A stretch of DNA of 64,000 bases from an uncultured Sphingomonadaceae bacterium (GTDB taxonomy: Bacteria; Pseudomonadota; Alphaproteobacteria; Sphingomonadales; Sphingomonadaceae): positions 9,065 through 73,064 of the forward strand of contig CAXTTJ010000005.1 in the NCBI GenBank assembly GCA_964247235.1, given 5' to 3'. This document shows, piece after piece, positions 14,960-28,844 of this stretch. Positions within the stretch are counted from its first letter, which is position 1; each line of letters opens with the position of its first letter. A program made the translations under genes and the position numbers. The notes beneath the pieces were generated by a model, which saw only the letters and a list, made by a program, of their open reading frames with translations, was not told the origin of the DNA and searched no databases.

Positions 14960-14968
14960 GCGCGCACC

Positions 14969-15033
14969 CTTCGCGGCTTCGCGGCTTCGCCTGAACCATT
15001 GCCATCCTCACGCGAAGCCGCGAAGACGCGAAG
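14969..15033. repeat. Palindromic (CGCGAAGC)n element 1, nuoK-nuoL junction
   Basis: 22-bp inverted arms at 14969-14990 and 15012-15033, one mismatch. Confidence 0.9.
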
Positions 15034-15056
15034 AAGAATACTGGCTGCGGCGCGCA

Positions 15057-15973: not shown

Positions 15974-16023
15974 CCGACTACTCCAAATTGGCGCCGCAGG
16001 CCAATAAGCTTTCTTCCCTCTTC

Positions 16024-16086
16024 CTTCGCGGCTTCGCGGCTTTGCGTGAGTCCAGTTGATTCACGCGAAGCCGCGAAGCCGCGAAG
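16024..16086. repeat. Palindromic element 2, nuoI-nuoJ junction
   Basis: 29-bp inverted arms at 16024-16052 and 16058-16086, 5-nt loop, two mismatches. Confidence 0.9.
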
Positions 16087-16153
16087 AAGAAGCGAAAAAT
16101 ATGAAGCCACTGGCGCGGCAATTGTGGTAGACATCCGAATCACGCCCGCGCCC

Positions 16154-17679: not shown

Positions 17680-17715
17680 CGCAGCGTCTCCCGACCGTAG
17701 GCCAGAAAGAGTGTT

Positions 17716-17795
17716 TCACGCGAAGCCGCGAAGCCGCGAAGGCTCTTGCGGGAAGTTTGCGACAGCAACCTTCGCGGCTTTGCGGCTTCGCGTGA
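17716..17795. repeat. Palindromic element 3, nuoG-nuoH junction
   Basis: 27-bp inverted arms at 17716-17742 and 17769-17795; arm order is reversed relative to elements 1 and 2. Confidence 0.9.
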
Positions 17796-17836
17796 GTCAA
17801 ACTTTCCTGCGCGCGAGCGCGCCATTTCCCGTAGCG

Positions 17837-19852
17837 TCATTCCGCTGCCTCCAGCATGTCGCTCCCGTGCAAAATTTCCGCCGAACATAGCTGCATCGTC
17901 GGGCTCGCGCGGCAGATGGCGTTGGTCAGGTAGAAATCCTTGATCGGATAACCCGCCATTTCGGCCCTTGGTGATTTCGGCAGTTTCGGCGGGTTCCAGC
18001 CATAATCGGCCAATCCCTCGACGCCAAGCGCCGGAACCTCGGCAAACATCGCGGCACGCAGGCCATCATAGCTATCGAACGGCAGCGTGTGGCCGAGCAC
18101 CTGCGACAGTGCCCGCAGGATCGTCCAGTCCTCACGCGCGTCTCCCGGCGGGAAGACGGCCCGCTCGCCGCGCTGCACACGCCCTTCAAGGTTCACATAA
18201 GTCCCCGGCTTTTCGGCGTAGCTCGCGCCCGGCAGCACGACATCCGCCGCTGCTGCGCCCCCCCGAACAGACGCGTCGCCATGATGGCCGATATAGACTT
18301 TGAACGAAGACTTGAACGCCGACCAGTCGACTTCGTCAGCGCCAAGTGCGAACACCAATCTGGTTCCCCGAAGCGCCGCGATCCCGCCCGGCTGCGCATA
18401 GCCGAGCATCAGCCCGCCCATCCGCGCGGCTGCCATATGCAGGACGTTGAACCCGTTCCAGCCGTCACGCACCAGCTTGTATTTGTCTGCTATGGCAAGC
18501 GCGGCGCCATGGACACCATCAACCGCCAGAGCACCGCCGCCAACGATGATCGCGGGCCGTTCGGCCACCGCCAAAGCATCCGACAGCACCTTGGGCAAGC
18601 GCGACAAAATGCCCAGCTCGCTTCCAAGCCAATGCGCCTTATAAGTGAGGTCAACCTCCGGCCCGATGGCAAAAACCTTCCCCCCACGCTTGATCGCCTT
18701 GCGCACGCGCGTGTTCACCAGGGGCGCTTCCCAGCGCAAATTCGTGCCGATCAGAAGAACCATATCGGCACGCTCGATGCCCGACATTGTGCTGTTGAAA
18801 TTCACTGCACTCAACGAAGAAACATCGTATTTCAAGCCATTTTGCCGCCCTTCAAACAAATCGCTACCCATCAAACGAACCAGATGCTTTGCCGCATACA
18901 TGGTTTCGCAGTCGACCAGATCGCCCGCAACCGCAGCGACGCTTGACCCTGCATCAACAGCCTGGATCGCCGCGAACGCTTCGTCCCATGTTGCCGCTTC
19001 CAGCTTGCCATTCCGCCGCACATACGGGCGATCGAGACGCTTCCTTACAAGGCCATCGACGGCATGGCGCGTCTTGTCCGACGCCCATTCCTCGTTTACG
19101 TCTTCGTTGATCCGCGGCAGCGCGCGCAGCACCTGCCGTCCGCGTGAATCGAGCCTGATGTTCGTCCCCACCGCGTCCATAACATCAATGGCGGGGGTCT
19201 TTTTCAACTCCCACGGCCGCGCCTCGAACGCATAGGGTTTGGACGTCAACGCACCTACCGGACACAGATCGACGACATTGCCCGACAATTCGGACTGGAT
19301 CGCATGTTCCAGATAGGTGGTGATCTGCATCGATTCACCGCGCCCGATTGCGCCGATATCCTCGACGCCCGCGACTTCCTCCGCAAAGCGGATGCAGCGC
19401 GTGCACTGGATGCACCGCGTCATCACCGTCTTGACGATCGGCCCCATATATTTCTCGGTCACGGCGCGCTTGTTTTCGTCATAGCGGCTGATGCCCTTGC
19501 CATAGGCGACCGACTGGTCCTGCAAATCGCATTCGCCGCCCTGATCGCAAATCGGGCAATCGAGCGGGTGGTTGATGAGCAGAAACTCCATCACCCCCTC
19601 GCGCGCCTTCTTCACCATCGCGCTGTCGGTGCGGATCGCCTGTCCCTCGGCGGCCGGAAGCGCGCACGACGCCTGCGGCTTGGGTGGCCCCGGCGCGACC
19701 TCGACCAGGCACATGCGGCAATTGCCCGCAATACTCAGGCGCTCATGATAGCAGAAACGCGGGATTTCCTTGCCCGCAAGTTCGCAGGCCTGAAGCACAG
19801 TAGCGCCAGCGGGAACTTCGATTTCGACGCCGTCGACAGTGAGTTTAGGCAT
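17837..19852 (-). CDS. nuoG: NADH-quinone oxidoreductase subunit G
   Basis: FCYHERLSIAGNCRMC, HPLDCPICDQGGEC, RCIQCTRC. Confidence 0.98.
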   Translation of the reverse strand: MPKLTVDGVEIEVPAGATVLQACELAGKEIPRFCYHERLSIAGNCRMCLVEVAPGPPKPQASCALPAAEGQAIRTDSAMVKKAREGVMEFLLINHPLDCPICDQGGECDLQDQSVAYGKGISRYDENKRAVTEKYMGPIVKTVMTRCIQCTRCIRFAEEVAGVEDIGAIGRGESMQITTYLEHAIQSELSGNVVDLCPVGALTSKPYAFEARPWELKKTPAIDVMDAVGTNIRLDSRGRQVLRALPRINEDVNEEWASDKTRHAVDGLVRKRLDRPYVRRNGKLEAATWDEAFAAIQAVDAGSSVAAVAGDLVDCETMYAAKHLVRLMGSDLFEGRQNGLKYDVSSLSAVNFNSTMSGIERADMVLLIGTNLRWEAPLVNTRVRKAIKRGGKVFAIGPEVDLTYKAHWLGSELGILSRLPKVLSDALAVAERPAIIVGGGALAVDGVHGAALAIADKYKLVRDGWNGFNVLHMAAARMGGLMLGYAQPGGIAALRGTRLVFALGADEVDWSAFKSSFKVYIGHHGDASVRGGAAAADVVLPGASYAEKPGTYVNLEGRVQRGERAVFPPGDAREDWTILRALSQVLGHTLPFDSYDGLRAAMFAEVPALGVEGLADYGWNPPKLPKSPRAEMAGYPIKDFYLTNAICRASPTMQLCSAEILHGSDMLEAAE

Positions 19853-19992
19853 TATTCCACCGCCTCCAGCAACTCACCACCATCACGCTCGTTGATCCGC
19901 CGCCCGATCTCAGGCCGGAAGTGCTTGATCAGCCCCTGGGTCGGCCACGTCGCGGCGTCGCCCCGCGCACAAATGGCATGACCTTCGGCTTG
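19852..19992 (-). pseudogene. Decayed duplicate of the nuoF 3' end
   Basis: Translates to [46 protein letters not shown], versus Nuo[46 protein letters not shown]. Ends in a TAATG overlap with the nuoG start. Confidence 0.9.
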
Positions 19993-20027
19993 CGGTCTAC
20001 AAATTGTTATATGAAGCATCGGCCCGC

Positions 20028-20255
20028 TCAGTGCGCTGTATCGGCGAGGCCGAGCCGCTTTTCAATTTGGTCAACGCGAACTTTCAAGTCCGAGATGTCA
20101 CTCTGCATCCCATAAACAGAGGTCATCAAGCCGCGCATATGTTCCTCGATCGAAGCCAGTCGGATGCCTTGCGACAATTGCTCGCGTTTGACACCACCCA
20201 AATCACCTTGAATTGATTTCAGTATTTCCAGCATCAAGTCGTCGCGGTCGGTCAT
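20028..20255 (-). CDS. 75-aa coiled-coil hypothetical protein (cargo A)
   Basis: Heptad pattern; similar to the ORF at 22434-22661. Confidence 0.8.
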
Positions 20256-20263
20256 TTTAATTC

Positions 20264-21559
20264 CTATTCAGCGGCTTGTAGCACAGGTTCGGCACGTTCG
20301 TTAATCCGCCGCTCTAATTCGGGCCGAAAATGCCTGATCAGCCCCTGGATCGGCCACGCCGCCGCGTCGCCCAGCGCGCAGATGGTGTGGCCTTCTACCT
20401 GTTTGGTCACTTCCTGCAGCAGGTCGATTTCGCCGATCTCCGCATCGCCGGTGCGCAGGCGTTCCATCATCCGCCACATCCATCCGGTGCCTTCGCGGCA
20501 CGGCGTGCACTGGCCACATGACTCATGCTTGTAGAAATAACTCAACCGCGAAATCGCGCGGACAATATCGGTCGATTTGTCCATTACGATAACCGCTGCG
20601 GTTCCCAGCCCTGATCCGACTGCCTTCAACCCGTCAAAGTCCATCGGGGCGTCCATGATCTGCGCGGCAGGGACGAGCGGCACGGACGATCCGCCGGGAA
20701 TGACCGCGAGCAGATTGTCCCACCCGCCGCGAATGCCGCCGCAATGCGTGTCGATGAGCTCACGAAACGGGATGCCCATCGCGTCCTCGACCACGCAAGG
20801 CTTGTTCACATGGCCGCTGATCTGGAACAGCTTGGTCCCTTCATTCTTCGGATTGCCGATCCCCGCAAACCATGGCGCACCGCGTCGCAGAATCGTCGGG
20901 ACGACGGCAATGCTCTCGACATTGTTGACTGTCGTCGGGCAACCATAAAGCCCCGCGCCCGCCGGGAACGGCGGTTTCAAACGCGGCTGGCCTTTCTTGC
21001 CTTCAAGACTTTCAAGCATCGCGGTTTCTTCGCCGCAGATATACGCGCCCGCGCCCCGGTGGACGAACACATCGAAATCATAGCCCGATTTGCAGGCGTT
21101 CTTGCCGATCAGTCCCTTGGCATAAGCCTCCGCCACGGCCGCGAACAGCACGTCGGTCTCACGGATATATTCGCCGCGGATGTAGATGTACGCGGCGCGC
21201 GCGCGCATGGCGTATCCGGCGATCAGCGCGCCTTCGATCAGCTTGTGCGGATCATGGCGGATGATCTCACGGTCCTTGCAGCTGCCGGGTTCGGATTCAT
21301 CGGCATTGATGACGAGGAAGTTCGGACGCCCCTCGGTCGGCGCCTTGGGCATGAAGCTCCACTTCATCCCCGTCGGGAAGCCAGCCCCGCCACGCCCGCG
21401 CAGGCCGCTCGCCTTGACCACATCGATGATTGCGTCCTGTCCGACAGCCATCAACGCCCTGGTCTTGTCCCAGTCACCGCGCTTCATCGCAGACGCGAGG
21501 TTCCACGGCTGAAAACCATAAAGGTTCGTGAAGATGCGGTCCTTGTCTTGCAAACTCAT
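20264..21559 (-). CDS. nuoF: NADH-quinone oxidoreductase subunit F
   Basis: [45 protein letters not shown]. Confidence 0.98.
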
Positions 21560-21588
21560 GCGCCGCTCCCAGCCCGAAGGGCAAGAAA

Positions 21589-21727
21589 TGACTCACGCGA
21601 AGCCGCGAAGTCGCGAAGAGCAAAGCACTCTCGGCAGCCTCTGCGTGAACCCGAGTCGATTTCATCCAGAGGGCGCAGAGGATGCCGACAAAATAATCTT
21701 CGCGGCTTCGCGCCTTCGCGTGAGTCA
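21589..21727. repeat. Palindromic element 4 with nested second inverted repeat, nuoE-nuoF junction
   Basis: 31-bp outer arms at 21589-21619 and 21697-21727; inner arms TCGGCAGCCTCTGCG / CGCAGAGGATGCCGA. Confidence 0.9.
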
Positions 21728-21761
21728 AATTTACTTGCGCGCACGTGCGCGAGCATTGGCG

Positions 21762-22430
21762 TCATGCCCAGTCCTTCCGGTAGTCATGGTTCTTGCCGAC
21801 CATTGCGATCAACGTCGTCGGCCGCCCTTCGGGGCAGCTGACCTGCCGCGCGATCTGCGAACCCGGCGTCACGGCACGCCCCTCGGCAAGCGCACTCAGG
21901 ATGGCTTCCATGCTGTCATAAGTCAGGTCTTCGAAATTATCGTCGTTGATCTGGACCATCGGCGCGTTCGCGCAGGCACCCAGACATTCGACTTCGGTGA
22001 GGGTGAACAAGCCGTCGGCGGTCGTCCGCCCCTTCGCCATCCCCCGGTTCGCGCAGGCGGCGAGGACATCGTCCGACCCGCGCAACATGCACGGCGTCGT
22101 TCCGCACACCTGCACATGATAGCGCCCGACCGGGGCCATATTGTACATCGTGTAAAAACTGACGACTTCATAGGCACGCATATAGGGCATGCCGAGTTGG
22201 GCCGCGACAAACTCGATGACGGGCACGGGCAGCCACCCTTGCGCGTTCGTTTCCGCCCCCACCTGTCGCTGGGCAAGGTCGAGCAGCGGCATCACCGCCG
22301 ATTGCTGCCGCCCCGCCGGATAGCGCGCGATGATCTCGGCGGCCTTGGTGGCATTCGCCTTGGTCCAGGCGAATTTGCCCCACCGCGCGCGGGTCTCCGC
22401 TTCCTCGGGGATGTGGGTGGTGTCAGCCAC
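21762..22430 (-). CDS. nuoE: NADH-quinone oxidoreductase subunit E
   Basis: [27 protein letters not shown] start. Confidence 0.97.
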
Positions 22431-22433
22431 AGA

Positions 22434-22661
22434 TTATCGCGCCTCCGACAATTCAAGCCGACGCTCGACACGACCGAGGCGTTCGTCGAACTTGTCCATG
22501 CGATTGTTCAAACCGGATAGGCTGATCAACATCCCGCCCATATGCTCGTCAAGTGCGGAAAGCCGTGATTTCACGACCTGCATGTCGTCTTCTATATTGG
22601 TCAACCGGTCATCGATGCGACGTAAGCGTTCGAGGATCAGATTTTCAACATTGTCAGTCAT
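22434..22661 (-). CDS. 75-aa coiled-coil hypothetical protein (cargo B)
   Basis: [13 protein letters not shown]...RLGRVERRLEL; paralogous to cargo A. Confidence 0.8.
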   Translation of the reverse strand: MTDNVENLILERLRRIDDRLTNIEDDMQVVKSRLSALDEHMGGMLISLSGLNNRMDKFDERLGRVERRLELSEAR

Positions 22662-22930
22662 GCCGAAGCTCCTTTCTGAACAGCACTATAGCCAAATTCA
22701 TGGTCACGCGCGCGAGTTTCGGCTTCGTCGGGCATGTGGGGGGTGTCGCCATTTGCGATTTCCCTCGAACGCCTTTCGAGAAACGCCTTCCAAAAGAGGG
22801 CTGCAAACCCGAGAAAATTCGTGAGTAGAATTTCGTCTAACACGTCCAAACCACGCGCAAACTTGAGCACTAGCAAAACTAATGACGCGCCGACGCTCAT
22901 CTTTTGGATGGTATCGAGCACCCCAATCAC
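22658..22930 (-). CDS. Chimeric small ORF: about 60-aa membrane peptide fused to a nuoE 5' relic
   Basis: Two hydrophobic segments followed by [18 protein letters not shown] overlap with the nuoD stop and ATGA overlap with cargo B. Confidence 0.55.
22688..22752 (-). pseudogene. Decayed duplicate of the nuoE 5' end with a 1-nt deletion
   Basis: Restoring one T gives [16 protein letters not shown] versus Nuo[17 protein letters not shown] (13/16 identical). Confidence 0.85.
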
Positions 22931-24177
22931 CGGTCACACTCCCCGAACACGATGTCCATCGCGCCGAGCACGGCGGTCGTGTCCGCGAGCATGTGGCCCT
23001 TCATCATGAAGTCCATCGCCTGCAAATGGCTGAACGCGGTCGGGCGGATTTTGCAGCGATAGGGTTTGTTCGTCCCGTCGCTGACCAGATAGACGCCGAA
23101 TTCGCCCTTGGGGCTTTCGGTCGCGACATAGACTTCGCCGGCGGGGACGTGGAAGCCCTCGGTATAGAGTTTGAAATGGTGGATCAGCGCTTCCATCGAT
23201 CGCTTCATTTCGGCGCGTTTGGGCGGCACCACCTTGCGGTCGTCGCTGGCGATCGGCCCCTCGGGCATTTGCGCCAGGCACTGTTTCATGATGCGCGCCG
23301 ATTGACGCACTTCCTCGACGCGGACCATGAAGCGGTCATAGCAATCGCCGCCACCTCTACCAATAACATTGCCCACCGGCACGTCGAAATCCATCCGGGC
23401 GTACACATCATAAGGCTGCGACTTGCGCAGATCCCACGCGATGCCCGAACCACGGATCATCGGCCCCGAAAAGCCCCAGCGCACCGCATCATCCTTGGTG
23501 ACCACACCGATGTCGACATTGCGCTGCTTGAAAATGCGGTTGTCGGCGACGAGGCTGATCGCATCCTCGAACAGTTGCGGCAGGCGCGTGTCGAGCCAGT
23601 CGGCAATGTCGGTGAGCAGCTTCAGCGGCACATCCTGATGCACGCCGCCGGGCCGGAAATAGGCGCAATGCATTCGCGCACCCGATGCGCGCTCGAAAAA
23701 GTTCATGCAGTCTTCGCGGATTTCGAACATCCACAAATTCGGCGTCATCGCACCGACGTCCATCACATGCGACCCGAGGTTGAGCATGTGATTGGAAATG
23801 CGCGTCAATTCGGCGAAAAACACTCGCAGATATTGCGCGCGCAACGGGACGTCGAGATCAAGCAGCTTCTCGATCGCGAGCACATATGAGTGCTCCATGC
23901 ACAGCGGCGAACAATAATCGAGGCGGTCGAAATAAGGCAGCGCCTGAAGATAGGTCTTATGCTCGATCAGCTTTTCGGTGCCGCGGTGGAGCAGCCCGAC
24001 ATGCGGGTCGCAGCGCTCGACGATTTCGCCGTCGAGTTCCATGACAAGCCGGAGAACGCCATGCGCGGCCGGGTGCTGCGGCCCGAAATTGATCGTGTAA
24101 TTCTGAATTTCGACATCGCCGGGGGTGGGCTTTTCGCCGTCGGTCTCCGTGCGAAATTGTTCGAGCGTTTCAGCCAC
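22927..24177 (-). CDS. nuoD: NADH-quinone oxidoreductase subunit D
   Basis: [47 protein letters not shown] at 24177. Confidence 0.97.
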
Positions 24178-24217
24178 AATAAATCTCCGCCGCGCTTGCG
24201 GCATTCAAAACCTTCAT

Positions 24218-24316
24218 CTTCGCGCCTTCGTGCCGTCGTGTGAAATCACGTCCTGTCTTCTCAACCTTGGCGAAGAAGGAGAAAAATGCCTCACACGAAA
24301 GCACGAAGGCACGAAG
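24218..24316. repeat. Palindromic element 5 (CACGAAGG variant), nuoC-nuoD junction
   Basis: 26-bp inverted arms at 24218-24243 and 24291-24316, three mismatches. Confidence 0.85.
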
Positions 24317-24333
24317 GTGGGAAGAAATGGCAG

Positions 24334-27511: not shown

Positions 27512-28189
27512 TTAGGGAGCAAGAACCGCCGCAAACACCTTCACCGCTGCCACTTCGTCGACGCCCCAGACGGCGTTGCACACCGCAATGAAATCAGCCC
27601 CCGCCTCGACCAGCGGCCGGGCATTGTCCGCTGTGATCCCGCCGATGGCAACGCAGGGCGTGCCGAACAGCGTCTGCCACCACGTCAGGATCGCCGGATC
27701 GGGGCGATAGTCGCTCGGCTTGGTCGTCGTCGGATAGAAGGCCCCGAACGCGACATAATCCGCCCCCGCCTCTCCCGCTTCCATCGCAAGGTGGCGGCTG
27801 TCGTGGCACGTCACGCCGATCTGCGCCTCACGCCCGAGGATTTGCCGTGCCTCACGCGGATCGCCATCCGACTGCCCGAGATGCAAGCCATCCGCGCCGA
27901 GCCGCTTGGCAAGACCGATTGAGTCATTGACGATGAACGCCACGTCCGCGTCTGCACAGATGCGCTGGAGCGGCTCGGCAAGCGCTGCAATGGCGTGATC
28001 GTCGACGCCCTTCAGCCGCAACTGAAACGCCGCAACGGGGCCAGCAGCGACGGCGCGCTTGAGGCGTTCAGCGAATGCGGCATCGATCACGGGCGGCGAA
28101 ATCAGATAAAGCTGACACGCCGGGCGCCGCTCACGGGCAAAACGTTCGCCGAAGGAGGCATCGAGGGGCGGCAGGTCGTCATCGATCAT
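27512..28189 (-). CDS. thiE: Thiamine-phosphate synthase
   Basis: [30 protein letters not shown]. Confidence 0.92.
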
Positions 28190-28216
28190 CGCGCGCCTAT
28201 AGCAAACCGAAAATCA

Positions 28217-28244
28217 TTGACCATCACCGATTTGTGTGTATGAT
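28217..28244 (+). promoter_or_regulatory. sigma70 promoter of hicAB, probably leaderless
   Basis: TTGACC-16 nt-TATGAT; ATG lies 7 nt after the -10 box with no SD sequence. Confidence 0.6.
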
Positions 28245-28251
28245 GCGCATA

Positions 28252-28437
28252 ATGACCAGTCGTGATCTGATCAGGCAGCTGACCGATGCAGGCTGGACGC
28301 TCGATAGGGTGCGCGGATCGCACCATGTTTTTGTACATGCGACGCGGCCCGGCCATGTCGTTGTCCCACATCCGAAAAAGGATCTGGGGCGCGGGCTAAT
28401 CGGGGCGATCCGCAAACAGGCAGGATTGGAAAAATGA
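28252..28437 (+). CDS. hicA: HicA family toxin
   Basis: GW..RVRGSHHVF...VVVPHPKKDL. Confidence 0.92.
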   Translation: MTSRDLIRQLTDAGWTLDRVRGSHHVFVHATRPGHVVVPHPKKDLGRGLIGAIRKQAGLEK

Positions 28438-28844
28438 CCATGCGCTATCCGATTGCCATCGAACCCGGCACCGAAACGACAGCATTTGGCGTCGTCGTGC
28501 CCGATCTGCCGGGATGTTTTTCGGCAGGGGACACGCTCGACGAAGCGATTGTCGGTGCCGAAGAAGCCGCCGCTGCATGGATCGACGCGACGCTTGACGC
28601 AGGGGCCGCCATCCCCCCGCCCTCGACGCTCGAAGCGGTGCAGGCCAATCCCGATTATCGCGGCTGGACTTACGGCGTGATCAACGTCGACCCCGCACTG
28701 CTCGACGACCGCGTCGAACGCGTCAATATCACCCTCCCCCGCCGCGTCCTGAAACGCCTTGACGCAATGGCAAGGGCAGCGGACGAAACGCGCTCGGGGT
28801 TCGTGGCGCAGTTGACGGTTGGGGATGGGAAGCGAGCGGCTTAG
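28434..28844 (+). CDS. hicB: HicB family antitoxin with C-terminal RHH
   Basis: VPDLPGCFSAGDTLDEA; RVNITLPRRVL. ATGA overlap with hicA. Confidence 0.92.
   Translation: MTMRYPIAIEPGTETTAFGVVVPDLPGCFSAGDTLDEAIVGAEEAAAAWIDATLDAGAAIPPPSTLEAVQANPDYRGWTYGVINVDPALLDDRVERVNITLPRRVLKRLDAMARAADETRSGFVAQLTVGDGKRAA

Follow-up and report, generated by a model that had tools for sequence, protein, structure and literature searches.

The elements e14 and phage 21, found in the icd gene of Escherichia coli, are integrase elements that reportedly bring a replacement 3' end to the gene they enter, leaving the icdC pseudogene behind, and islands targeting tRNA or tmRNA genes are further examples of integrase-mediated 3'-end insertion. 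Here we describe a comparable arrangement in the complex I (nuo) operon of an uncultured Sphingomonadaceae bacterium (assembly GCA_964247235.1), located in a stretch of 64,000 nucleotides (nt) of contig CAXTTJ010000005.1 (positions 9,065 to 73,064), referred to below as the window. At the junction of nuoF and nuoG (F/G), a small gene encoding 75 amino acids (aa), orf75a, stands between the functional nuoF and a second, diverged NuoF C-terminus (the relic). The two nuoF ends have different origins, and the best overall reading, which we hold with moderate confidence, invokes a single illegitimate event involving divergent nuo operons, then homologous recombination with the relic as an arm, and a role of the relic as a bridge into nuoG.

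As in e14 and phage 21, the incoming DNA appears to have supplied a replacement 3' end that differs at many synonymous sites, the old end lies truncated and decaying downstream, and direct repeats of the gene end flank the insert; the functional nuoF carries a foreign-type tail, and a native-type relic follows 409 nt downstream. Unlike elements of that type, which span kilobases and have a tyrosine integrase and a short attachment (att) core, the insert measures 409 bp and holds one 75-aa gene, about 135 nt of homologous coding sequence would take the part of an attachment site, and the donor would be another copy of the same operon. An earlier sequence-only reading of this DNA had already remarked on an insert of about 400 bp with no integrase; indeed, no integrase or transposase was found in the insert or within ~10 kb of it (recombinases elsewhere in the genome were outside this search), where the neighbours are nuo genes, birA, coaX, efp, thiE, a suhB-like gene and a hicB-like gene.

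A second point of comparison is offered by the unidentified reading frames (URFs) of alphaproteobacterial complex I operons, namely those of the Paracoccus denitrificans nqo cluster and of Rhodobacter capsulatus nuo, which are small, tightly packed, co-transcribed open reading frames (ORFs) other than subunit genes, lying on the same strand between nuo genes and varying in content by species. Likewise, orf75a lies on the operon's strand 8 nt past the nuoF stop, no promoter or terminator was found in the insert, and its position is kept in relatives; the likeness is one of position and layout. A search for open-access papers describing the Paracoccus and Rhodobacter URFs found none, and we know of no description of duplicated gene-end relics, or of evidence of arrival, for such frames. 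The present locus may extend the URF observation by a footprint of how these genes arrive.

Campbell-type insertion-duplication of a non-replicating circle carrying a 3'-terminal gene fragment and ends-in gene targeting are laboratory methods. The products of the former have the anatomy seen here, an intact upstream copy, the insert and a 5'-truncated downstream copy, and require only host homologous recombination. In the window, the flanking direct repeats are homologous to the nuoF end, the upstream copy being complete and the downstream one 5'-truncated, and they derive from donor and recipient lineages, as detailed below. Unlike the laboratory procedure, the event would be natural and involve a unit of only 0.4 kb, for which a circle and RecA dependence are hypothetical. 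The locus also recalls integron cassettes in its small promoterless ORFs stacked in an expressed array and in the turnover of cargo between relatives. Unlike integrons, it has no attC and no IntI, and its "separators" are nuoF coding relics present only in some arrays; the linker and relic have no significant RNA fold (z +1.46), the repeat search gave no inverted repeats at the insert, and the neighbourhood holds no integrase. Homology-facilitated illegitimate recombination, defined as one homologous anchor combined with one illegitimate join (PMC3240628), similarly lets foreign DNA enter without mobile-element functions. That process usually replaces or deletes recipient DNA, whereas here the join lies upstream of the anchor's end, recipient sequence is duplicated, and no microhomology was identified. 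It and laboratory insertion-duplication are the closest mechanistic counterparts. The arrangement is genuine, recurs and is informative on mechanism, without amounting to a new class of element.

The operon lies on the minus strand and comprises, in this order, nuoD, a 90-aa ORF, orf75b, nuoE, nuoF, orf75a, a 55-codon ORF with the relic, and nuoG (Table 1). All coordinates and features of the sequence-only reading were confirmed: the nuoF stop, the 75-aa ORF, the diverged second NuoF C-terminus and the TAATG by which the TAA stop of the relic overlaps the nuoG ATG. The functional NuoF shares 88-95% amino-acid identity with NuoF of the genus, and AGGA lies upstream of the orf75a start. The relic is in frame and open, matches the working NuoF end at 78% amino-acid identity (tblastn E 7e-17), and scores 25.2 bits for PF10589 (NADH_4Fe-4S) against a Pfam cut-off of 23.5. 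Its substitutions, comprising the L>R, A>T and I>T (PIQ>PTQ) changes reported earlier as well as T>A and E>G, all fall at sites invariant in 36 aligned functional genes, 26 of them from the window's genus. A repeat search recovers the two ends as direct repeats of 103 nt with 82% identity, spaced 409 nt apart; their longest exact runs fall in strongly conserved codons and are hence uninformative on any att core. Within the relic, 10 nt upstream of the nuoG ATG, stands GGAGG, and GGTGG stands 4 nt upstream; the motif around GGAGG, CTGGAGGCGGCGGAG, is also kept in the functional nuoF tails of the genus, and GGAGG may act as the nuoG ribosome-binding site.

G000 denotes the genome of the window, other G numbers the genomes and L numbers the other loci or contigs compared; the genus set comprises 41 species genomes. 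Collapse of two strains during assembly or binning might be suspected in G000, a draft of 79 contigs. Yet the identical layout of nuoF, 8 nt, ORF, linker and relic occurs on the independent metagenome contig L036, which makes an artefact unlikely, and analogous architectures occur in isolate and metagenome-assembled genome (MAG) records of other species; moreover, the two copies are only 82% identical and separated by unique sequence, and the 106-kb contig is collinear with relatives on both sides. We regard such an artefact as scarcely credible.

The different origins of the two ends emerge from their tails and from the gene-end phylogeny. NuoF tails fall into two classes: (i) "...(GGE)MLEAAE", overlapping the next start (TAATG, GTGA or ATGA), in nearly all genus members and in all relics, vs. 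(ii) "...QAAE" followed by TAG, 8 nt and ATG, in the functional ends of G000, the metagenome loci L034, L036 and L037, and G016, where this layout is placed directly before nuoG. In a maximum-likelihood tree of the last 44-46 codons of nuoF, the five QAAE functional ends form one clade (94/97 support) with the relics outside it and the relic of G000 among the (GGE)MLEAAE ends. The approximately unbiased (AU) test rejects the two ends of G000 as sisters (p 0.013), and their divergence at synonymous (dS) and non-synonymous (dN) sites, 0.88 and 0.17, respectively, is at species level for the former, unlike that of a young local duplicate. In the 99 nt before the tail we counted ~12 synonymous and 7 non-synonymous differences, vs. 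~5 synonymous per 7 non-synonymous expected of a recent local duplicate with a neutral relic (dN about half of dS). The tails of the two copies agree at 18/33 positions, compared with 27/36 between the relic and G023, G001, G021 and G011. Local tandem duplication, which would make the relic and the functional end sisters and had been named in advance as the outcome speaking against the sequence-only reading, is ruled out for G000 by the AU test together with the dS/dN ratio, and the suggestion that the two ends came from different lineages holds.

Proximity of species to G000 was judged by identity of two housekeeping markers, transketolase and RNase J. The nearest are G010, G013, G052, G014, G023, G046 and G007, followed by G004, G051, G021, G001 and G015, and a relic-type tail, of the form (A/M)GGEMLEAAE, is present in all those near species whose nuoF was recovered. 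G016 and G041 are distant (73-74% transketolase and 81-82% RNase J identity; 74% and 81% for G016). A scan of the functional nuoF for private differences picks out only its final 42 nt as foreign-looking, with 62% identity to near species vs. 93% to L036. Empty F/G junctions in close relatives, proposed earlier as a check, were found: nuoF-TAATG-nuoG occurs in G021, of the near clade, and in G019, with sequence matching the relic/nuoG junction, and the clade-typical tail of G021, GGEMLEAAE, resembles that of the relic. It is thus largely supported that the relic would be the displaced native-type end, the working tail being shared with distant lineages; the "native" call follows from the tails, the two marker genes and the native-looking nuoG.

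These data also bear on an older local duplication, in which an ancestor would have duplicated its own nuoF end around orf75a and the functional tail or the relic would later have been overwritten by interspecies gene flow. Functional and relic tails are indeed of one type in L068, L072 and L071 (the copies of L071 being close, dS 0.22), and the DNA to the right of the relic has demonstrably been exchanged between genomes, so overwriting does occur. The non-sister relation and the dS of the two G000 copies tell against it, however, as does the absence of the module from all ~10 nearest species with a recovered F/G junction, which would call for many losses; furthermore, L037 pairs the QAAE tail with orf75 but has no relic, and G016 has this tail with neither. 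We consider this explanation quite improbable.

Under the reading we favour, the lineage probably started with nuoF and nuoG directly joined by TAATG. DNA of another nuo operon, consisting of a nuoF 3' end with the "..QAAE-TAG" tail and orf75a, would have entered this native-type operon through one junction in the homologous nuoF 3' end and an illegitimate one ~135 nt before the native nuoF stop (alternatively, the founding route may have been insertion-duplication of a circularised fragment), with the result that the incoming end would complete nuoF and the native end would be stranded downstream. Given the nuoF/nuoG overlap and the GGAGG inside the nuoF tail, only joins upstream of that signal would leave both genes working, and survivors would carry a duplicated nuoF end because joins must lie upstream of the putative nuoG ribosome-binding site. 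The unit of nuoF end, orf75a, linker and relic may then move between related species by double-crossover homologous recombination, with nuoF as the left arm and the donor relic, paired with the recipient's own nuoF end, as the right arm. Such a double crossover would keep the linker/relic junction constant and leave the 3' part of the new relic and the downstream DNA native to the recipient, whose own nuoF end would become the new relic; cargo downstream of the relic could later be exchanged. The arrangement can be accounted for without a dedicated mobile element. Integration by a fragment bringing its own gene end, as proposed in the sequence-only reading, is in this respect largely supported, except that the cargo is not exotic and the donor would be another nuo operon.

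We infer the recombination mechanism and the direction of transfer from sequence comparisons of relic-bearing loci. G000 and L036 have a common linker/relic junction, and their linkers are homologous (~71% identity; the L034 linker matches in part), while the right side differs, with TAATG-nuoG in G000 and GTGA followed by another ORF in L036. Decay of the relics is private (T4A, L8R, A13T, I16T and E28G in G000; H3Q, C6S and R29Q in L036), with no change in common. Between these relics dS is 0.82, similar to the 0.68 of the nuoF body, and dN (0.16) approximates the sum of the private changes, so that most of each relic would have stood in a working gene until recently. Three further loci, L068, L072 and L073, are ~90% collinear through nuoF, orf75 and relic and then carry a different ORF each before nuoG. 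Relic and functional tails differ in L073 and L103 (GGGxETMQEAAE and GDAGEAMLEAAE, respectively); a cassette swap between these two loci was rejected, the loci being collinear at 91%. A double crossover between diverged nuo operons would be the simplest way to arrive at all of these patterns. (L068 and L093 represent one organism, as do L073 and L097, and L033 and L061 are the same record.)

To judge by its changed invariant residues, the relic no longer encodes NuoF function, and in this sense the earlier description of a decaying old end stands. Its description as merely left to decay does not: the relic is also an open ORF, coupled at both ends, that holds the Shine-Dalgarno-like sequence of nuoG. 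In all nine cases the relic is part of an ORF that begins at the stop before it or a few nt away, or else overlaps the tail of the ORF before it (TGATG, TAATG, or 8 nt past the stop), and the end of the relic ORF always overlaps the start that follows; G047 has lost the original frame, but another frame is open across the same span. The relic probably persists as a translational bridge feeding ribosomes into nuoG, and the open, coupled relic ORFs would fit selection for uninterrupted translation into the next gene, with modest statistical weight.

Several points weigh against the overall interpretation. Most of the signal separating the two ends comes from ~35 nt of tail, and the remaining 99 nt are uninformative because the genus phylogeny is star-like. 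The phylogeny of the nuoF body, put forward earlier as a donor-vs.-native test, was run but gave a near-polytomy: a single clade of the five QAAE rows is rejected (p 5e-61), but solely through the nesting of G041 with two of these rows, and a clade of G000 with the other QAAE rows is not rejected once G041 is included (p-AU 0.28). As the tree did not resolve the question, this test was dropped in favour of the two housekeeping markers, and it is only these markers and the native-looking nuoG that would exclude a vertically inherited QAAE tail combined with an imported relic. A sliding-window scan of nuoF for the left recombination breakpoint singled out the last 42 nt alone and had low power, all species being ~85% identical. 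With respect to mechanism, the founding illegitimate event is not reconstructable, no microhomology is evident at the linker/relic join, and the 5' boundary of the relic cannot be precisely placed in G000. For the module, G000 and L036 differ by a dS of 0.39-0.53, not significantly below that of the nuoF body, which leaves the number of separate transfers uncertain. As to the bridge, open frames are common by chance in G+C-rich DNA (we estimate ~0.24 for 55 codons), and translation of the relic ORF and its role in nuoG expression are putative.

One alternative is a mobile cassette that uses homology, in which nuoF 3' end, orf75a and linker loop out as a ~410-bp circle when the two copies of the nuoF end recombine, and one Campbell-type crossover with the nuoF end of an operon lacking the unit re-integrates the circle; each integration would remake identical boundaries and strand the resident nuoF end as a fresh relic. 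The common junction of G000 and L036, with no shared decay and with their own relic tails and downstream contexts, is what such a circle would leave, and so are the relic loci that form at least three separate clusters in the orf75a tree, each beside relic-less sisters, and the similar relic lengths in independent cases (starts at codons 380-389); the anatomy of the product also equals that of laboratory insertion-duplication with a 3'-terminal gene fragment. Nevertheless, a double crossover with the relic as the right arm would yield every one of these observations with no circle, 135-nt repeats at ~80% identity are now poor recombination substrates, and the boundaries are similar but not demonstrably identical. 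A circle thus strikes us as unlikely, although deserving of some weight.

Relics of the NuoF end are not restricted to this genome. They are present in at least seven lineages, both with orf75 and with other cargo. A search of the genus with the NuoF C-terminus revealed a second copy in G013, G054 and G047 (Table 1), where a 6-7-codon deletion common to the G013 and G054 relics indicates their common origin. Elsewhere in Sphingomonadales, orf75 is followed by a relic in L068, L072, L073, L103 and L071, where the relics begin at about codons 380-387. One exact boundary for all cases was sought and not established (about codons 380, 384, 387 and 389, and further 5' in G013 and G054), and an 8-mer common to G000 and L071, CGGGCCGA, proved to lie at non-homologous positions. 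Beyond GAAGG in the upstream direction, extension of the homology lacks significance in G000 (p 0.96) and is of marginal significance in L036 (p 0.03), decay having blurred the linker/relic boundary.

These boundaries are also the ground on which a site-specific insertion might be argued, carried out by a recombinase or nuclease encoded elsewhere that recognizes a motif near nuoF codons 380-389, e.g., GGTGACC: the 5' boundaries of at least three cargo/lineage combinations fall within ~30 nt, and homology in L068, L072, L073 and L071 reaches, or passes by a few codons, the GTGACC at codon 384. Since the boundaries do differ, no recombinase gene lies in or near any insert, no inverted repeats and no evident att-like core were found, and a mirror-image case at nuoE (see below) has unrelated sequence at its boundary, we judge this very improbable; selection, with short repeats being stable and the relic lacking the CxxCxxC Fe-S cluster motif, and a minimal length of homology can together account for the similar lengths. 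A broader generalization, which we put forward only tentatively and consider doubtful, is that the last ~45-50 nuoF codons might act as a portable homology "attachment site" for integrase-free cassettes (candidates being orf75, a ~240-aa signal-peptide-like protein and a retropepsin-like protein) that travel across Sphingomonadales solely through host recombination and stack in the complex I operon, the displaced ends being kept as translated bridge ORFs that maintain coupling to the gene behind them, and that this might be a general route for hitch-hiking genes into essential operons with overlapping genes.

Table 1. Coordinates and gene orders at the nuoF/nuoG junction, in the rest of the window and in the loci compared (window numbering unless a locus is named)
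Feature	Position	Strand	Remarks
nuoG, 671 aa	17837-19852	minus	5' end 91% nucleotide identity to nearest species G013
55-codon ORF	19852-20019	minus	starts 8 nt past orf75a stop; last 44 codons are the second NuoF C-terminus
Relic, second NuoF C-terminus, 44 codons + stop	19852-19986	minus	homology from GAAGGT (codon matching E389); ends GGELLEAVE*
GGAGG, Shine-Dalgarno-like	19863-19867	minus	inside relic
Direct repeat pair	19884-19986, 20293-20395		repeat search
Linker, 41 nt	19987-20027	minus	contains ATG (20017-20019) of the 55-codon ORF crossing the relic
orf75a (cargo), 75 aa	20028-20255	minus	ORF list; stop TGA
8-nt spacer GAATTAAA	20256-20263	minus	nuoF TAG to orf75a ATG; read from sequence
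"..PVLQAAE-TAG" tail	20264-20305	minus	last 42 nt of nuoF; tail type foreign to the organism's clade
Functional copy of duplicated segment H	20264-20395	minus	direct repeat; codons 389-431 + stop
Functional nuoF, 431 aa	20264-21559	minus	Pfam Complex1_51K + SLBB + NADH_4Fe-4S; stop TAG 20264-20266
nuoE	21762-22430	minus	ORF list + Pfam
orf75b, cargo paralog	22434-22661	minus	directly upstream of nuoE; 30% identity to orf75a, E 6e-10
90-aa ORF	22658-22930	minus	coupled to nuoD stop (GTGA) and orf75b start (ATGA)
Relic of NuoE residues 1-19	~22688-22752		in 90-aa ORF; tblastn E 0.004
nuoD	22927-24204	minus	ORF list + Pfam
REP-like element	14966-15038, 16011-16099, 17701-17822, 21587-21750, 24215-24325		
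120-aa ORF	28075-28437		
HicB-like antitoxin gene	28434-28844	plus	PF15919 E 5e-50
orf75-family copy outside nuo	L058 2996-3238		
orf75-family copy outside nuo	L059 3006-3248	minus	
orf75-family copy outside nuo	L056 3011-3232		
orf75-family copy outside nuo	L057 3003-3230		
G054 F/G junction			nuoF, 242-aa ORF with signal-peptide-like N-terminus, 152-aa retropepsin-like ORF, relic, 197-aa ORF, nuoG
G013 F/G junction			nuoF, 246-aa homolog of the 242-aa ORF of G054, relic, 82-aa ORF, nuoG
G047 F/G junction			nuoF, retropepsin-like ORF, heavily decayed relic, nuoG

The distribution of the cargo, assembled from context look-ups and two collection scans (genomes and metagenomes, the latter giving loci with an alignment query and none with a single-protein query), points to the kind of donor involved. 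A large protein collection holds 30 homologs of orf75a (59-95% identity), and 48 further loci of Sphingomonadales have a family member at the F/G junction, most of them lacking a relic. This placement is seen in all 22 genome loci and in 22 of 27 metagenome loci, in addition to L034, L036, L037 and G017; in the remaining five metagenome loci (42-46% identity) nuo genes were not seen nearby. The genome loci include Sphingomonas baiyangensis, S. natans BIUV-7, S. aerolata, S. solaris, S. lenta and Sphingobium spp., as well as Erythrobacter and Novosphingobium MAGs, and the usual layout is an (A/G)TGA overlap of orf75a with nuoF and a 1-nt gap to nuoG. Among the 41 species of the genus, however, orf75a occupies the junction only in G000 and the distant G017 (52% identity). 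Vertical inheritance of the cargo across the family, the other outcome named against the sequence-only reading, thus fails within the genus, but orf75a is an old and widespread resident of the nuoF/nuoG junction in Sphingomonadales and not a foreign gene. A cargo resident in nuo operons implies that the donor was another nuo operon. G016 bears the QAAE tail and the TAG + 8 nt + ATG layout, its ATG being that of nuoG, and has no orf75; either a precise loss or the pre-insertion state of the donor lineage could account for this.

The orf75a gene is under strong purifying selection, with dN/dS of 0.01-0.06 relative to homologs of 78-95% amino-acid identity. Pfam and NCBIfam gave no curated family match, only sub-threshold coiled-coil noise, and the product is predicted to be a single long coiled-coil helix (AlphaFold2 model with a predicted local distance difference test score, pLDDT, of 93 and a helix over residues 2-68). 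Behind the closest homolog (95%) comes an A+T-rich ORF of 150 aa or more (L034 1412-1861 and L035 665-1114) unlike those of other loci, and both contigs stop before the point where a relic or nuoG could appear. In the near species G046, a different 72-aa coiled-coil-like ORF (MISDLDYIRNDVADLKVDL...; L040 99-317) lies between nuoF and nuoG and may be a distant family member.

A paralog of the cargo, orf75b, occupies the D/E junction of the same operon, where nuoD is followed by a GTGA overlap, the 90-aa ORF, an ATGA overlap, orf75b, TAA + 3 nt and nuoE. The 90-aa ORF consists of a hydrophobic N-terminal part joined to a relic of the NuoE N-terminus, and this nuoE 5' relic beside orf75b reads as the mirror image of the F/G case, with the relic upstream of the cargo and the cargo abutting the working nuoE. 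Distant orf75 paralogs stand at the E/F junction in G021 and G004. Outside nuo, genes of the family lie directly after sucC (G013, G010) and after a DUF808-like gene near rpsL (G001, G023), no duplicated gene ends being found at these sites, and the family appears to tend to lodge behind highly expressed housekeeping genes.

The usual view is that insertion is barred from operons of essential complexes in which stop and start codons overlap, but this locus and its relatives keep an insertion scar: the incoming DNA would bring a complete gene end, and the old end would stay because the start signals of the next gene lie in it. The junction thereby may provide a natural, recurrent system for the study of recombinase-free gene gain via recombination between diverged copies of one operon, and for asking (i) whether translational coupling alone keeps a pseudogene fragment open and (ii) what role small conserved ORFs play in alphaproteobacterial complex I operons. 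The 55-aa "NADH_4Fe-4S" ORF should be annotated as a relic and not as an Fe-S protein gene.

Other cargo at the F/G junction varies widely within the genus, the spacer ranging from -1 to 2775 nt among the 41 species. The commonest is the ~240-aa protein with a signal-peptide-like N-terminus and without a Pfam match (e.g., L042 1178-1918, reverse-oriented, L039 and L050), present in 19 copies in 15 genomes, with up to four in tandem in G050. An ORF of 137-152 aa with a DSGA motif, giving sub-threshold matches to retropepsin-like aspartyl protease families (PF13650, PF13975, E 3e-4), occurs as F/G cargo in L039 (2599-3057, minus strand), G008, G047 and L071. In G042 (L044) and G055 (L054) the tblastn match to NuoF ends before the C-terminus, which could be due to a frameshift, an insertion in nuoF or an assembly error.

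The operon also hosts a second, unrelated kind of insert, a palindromic element resembling repetitive extragenic palindromic (REP) sequences (TCACGCGAAGCCGCGAAGCCGCGAAG ... CTTCGCGGCTTCGCGGCTTCGCGTGA), found in five nuo junctions (L/K, J/I, H/G, F/E and D/C). Upstream of the nuo operon, a HicB-like antitoxin gene is situated among housekeeping genes, its start overlapped by a 120-aa ORF.

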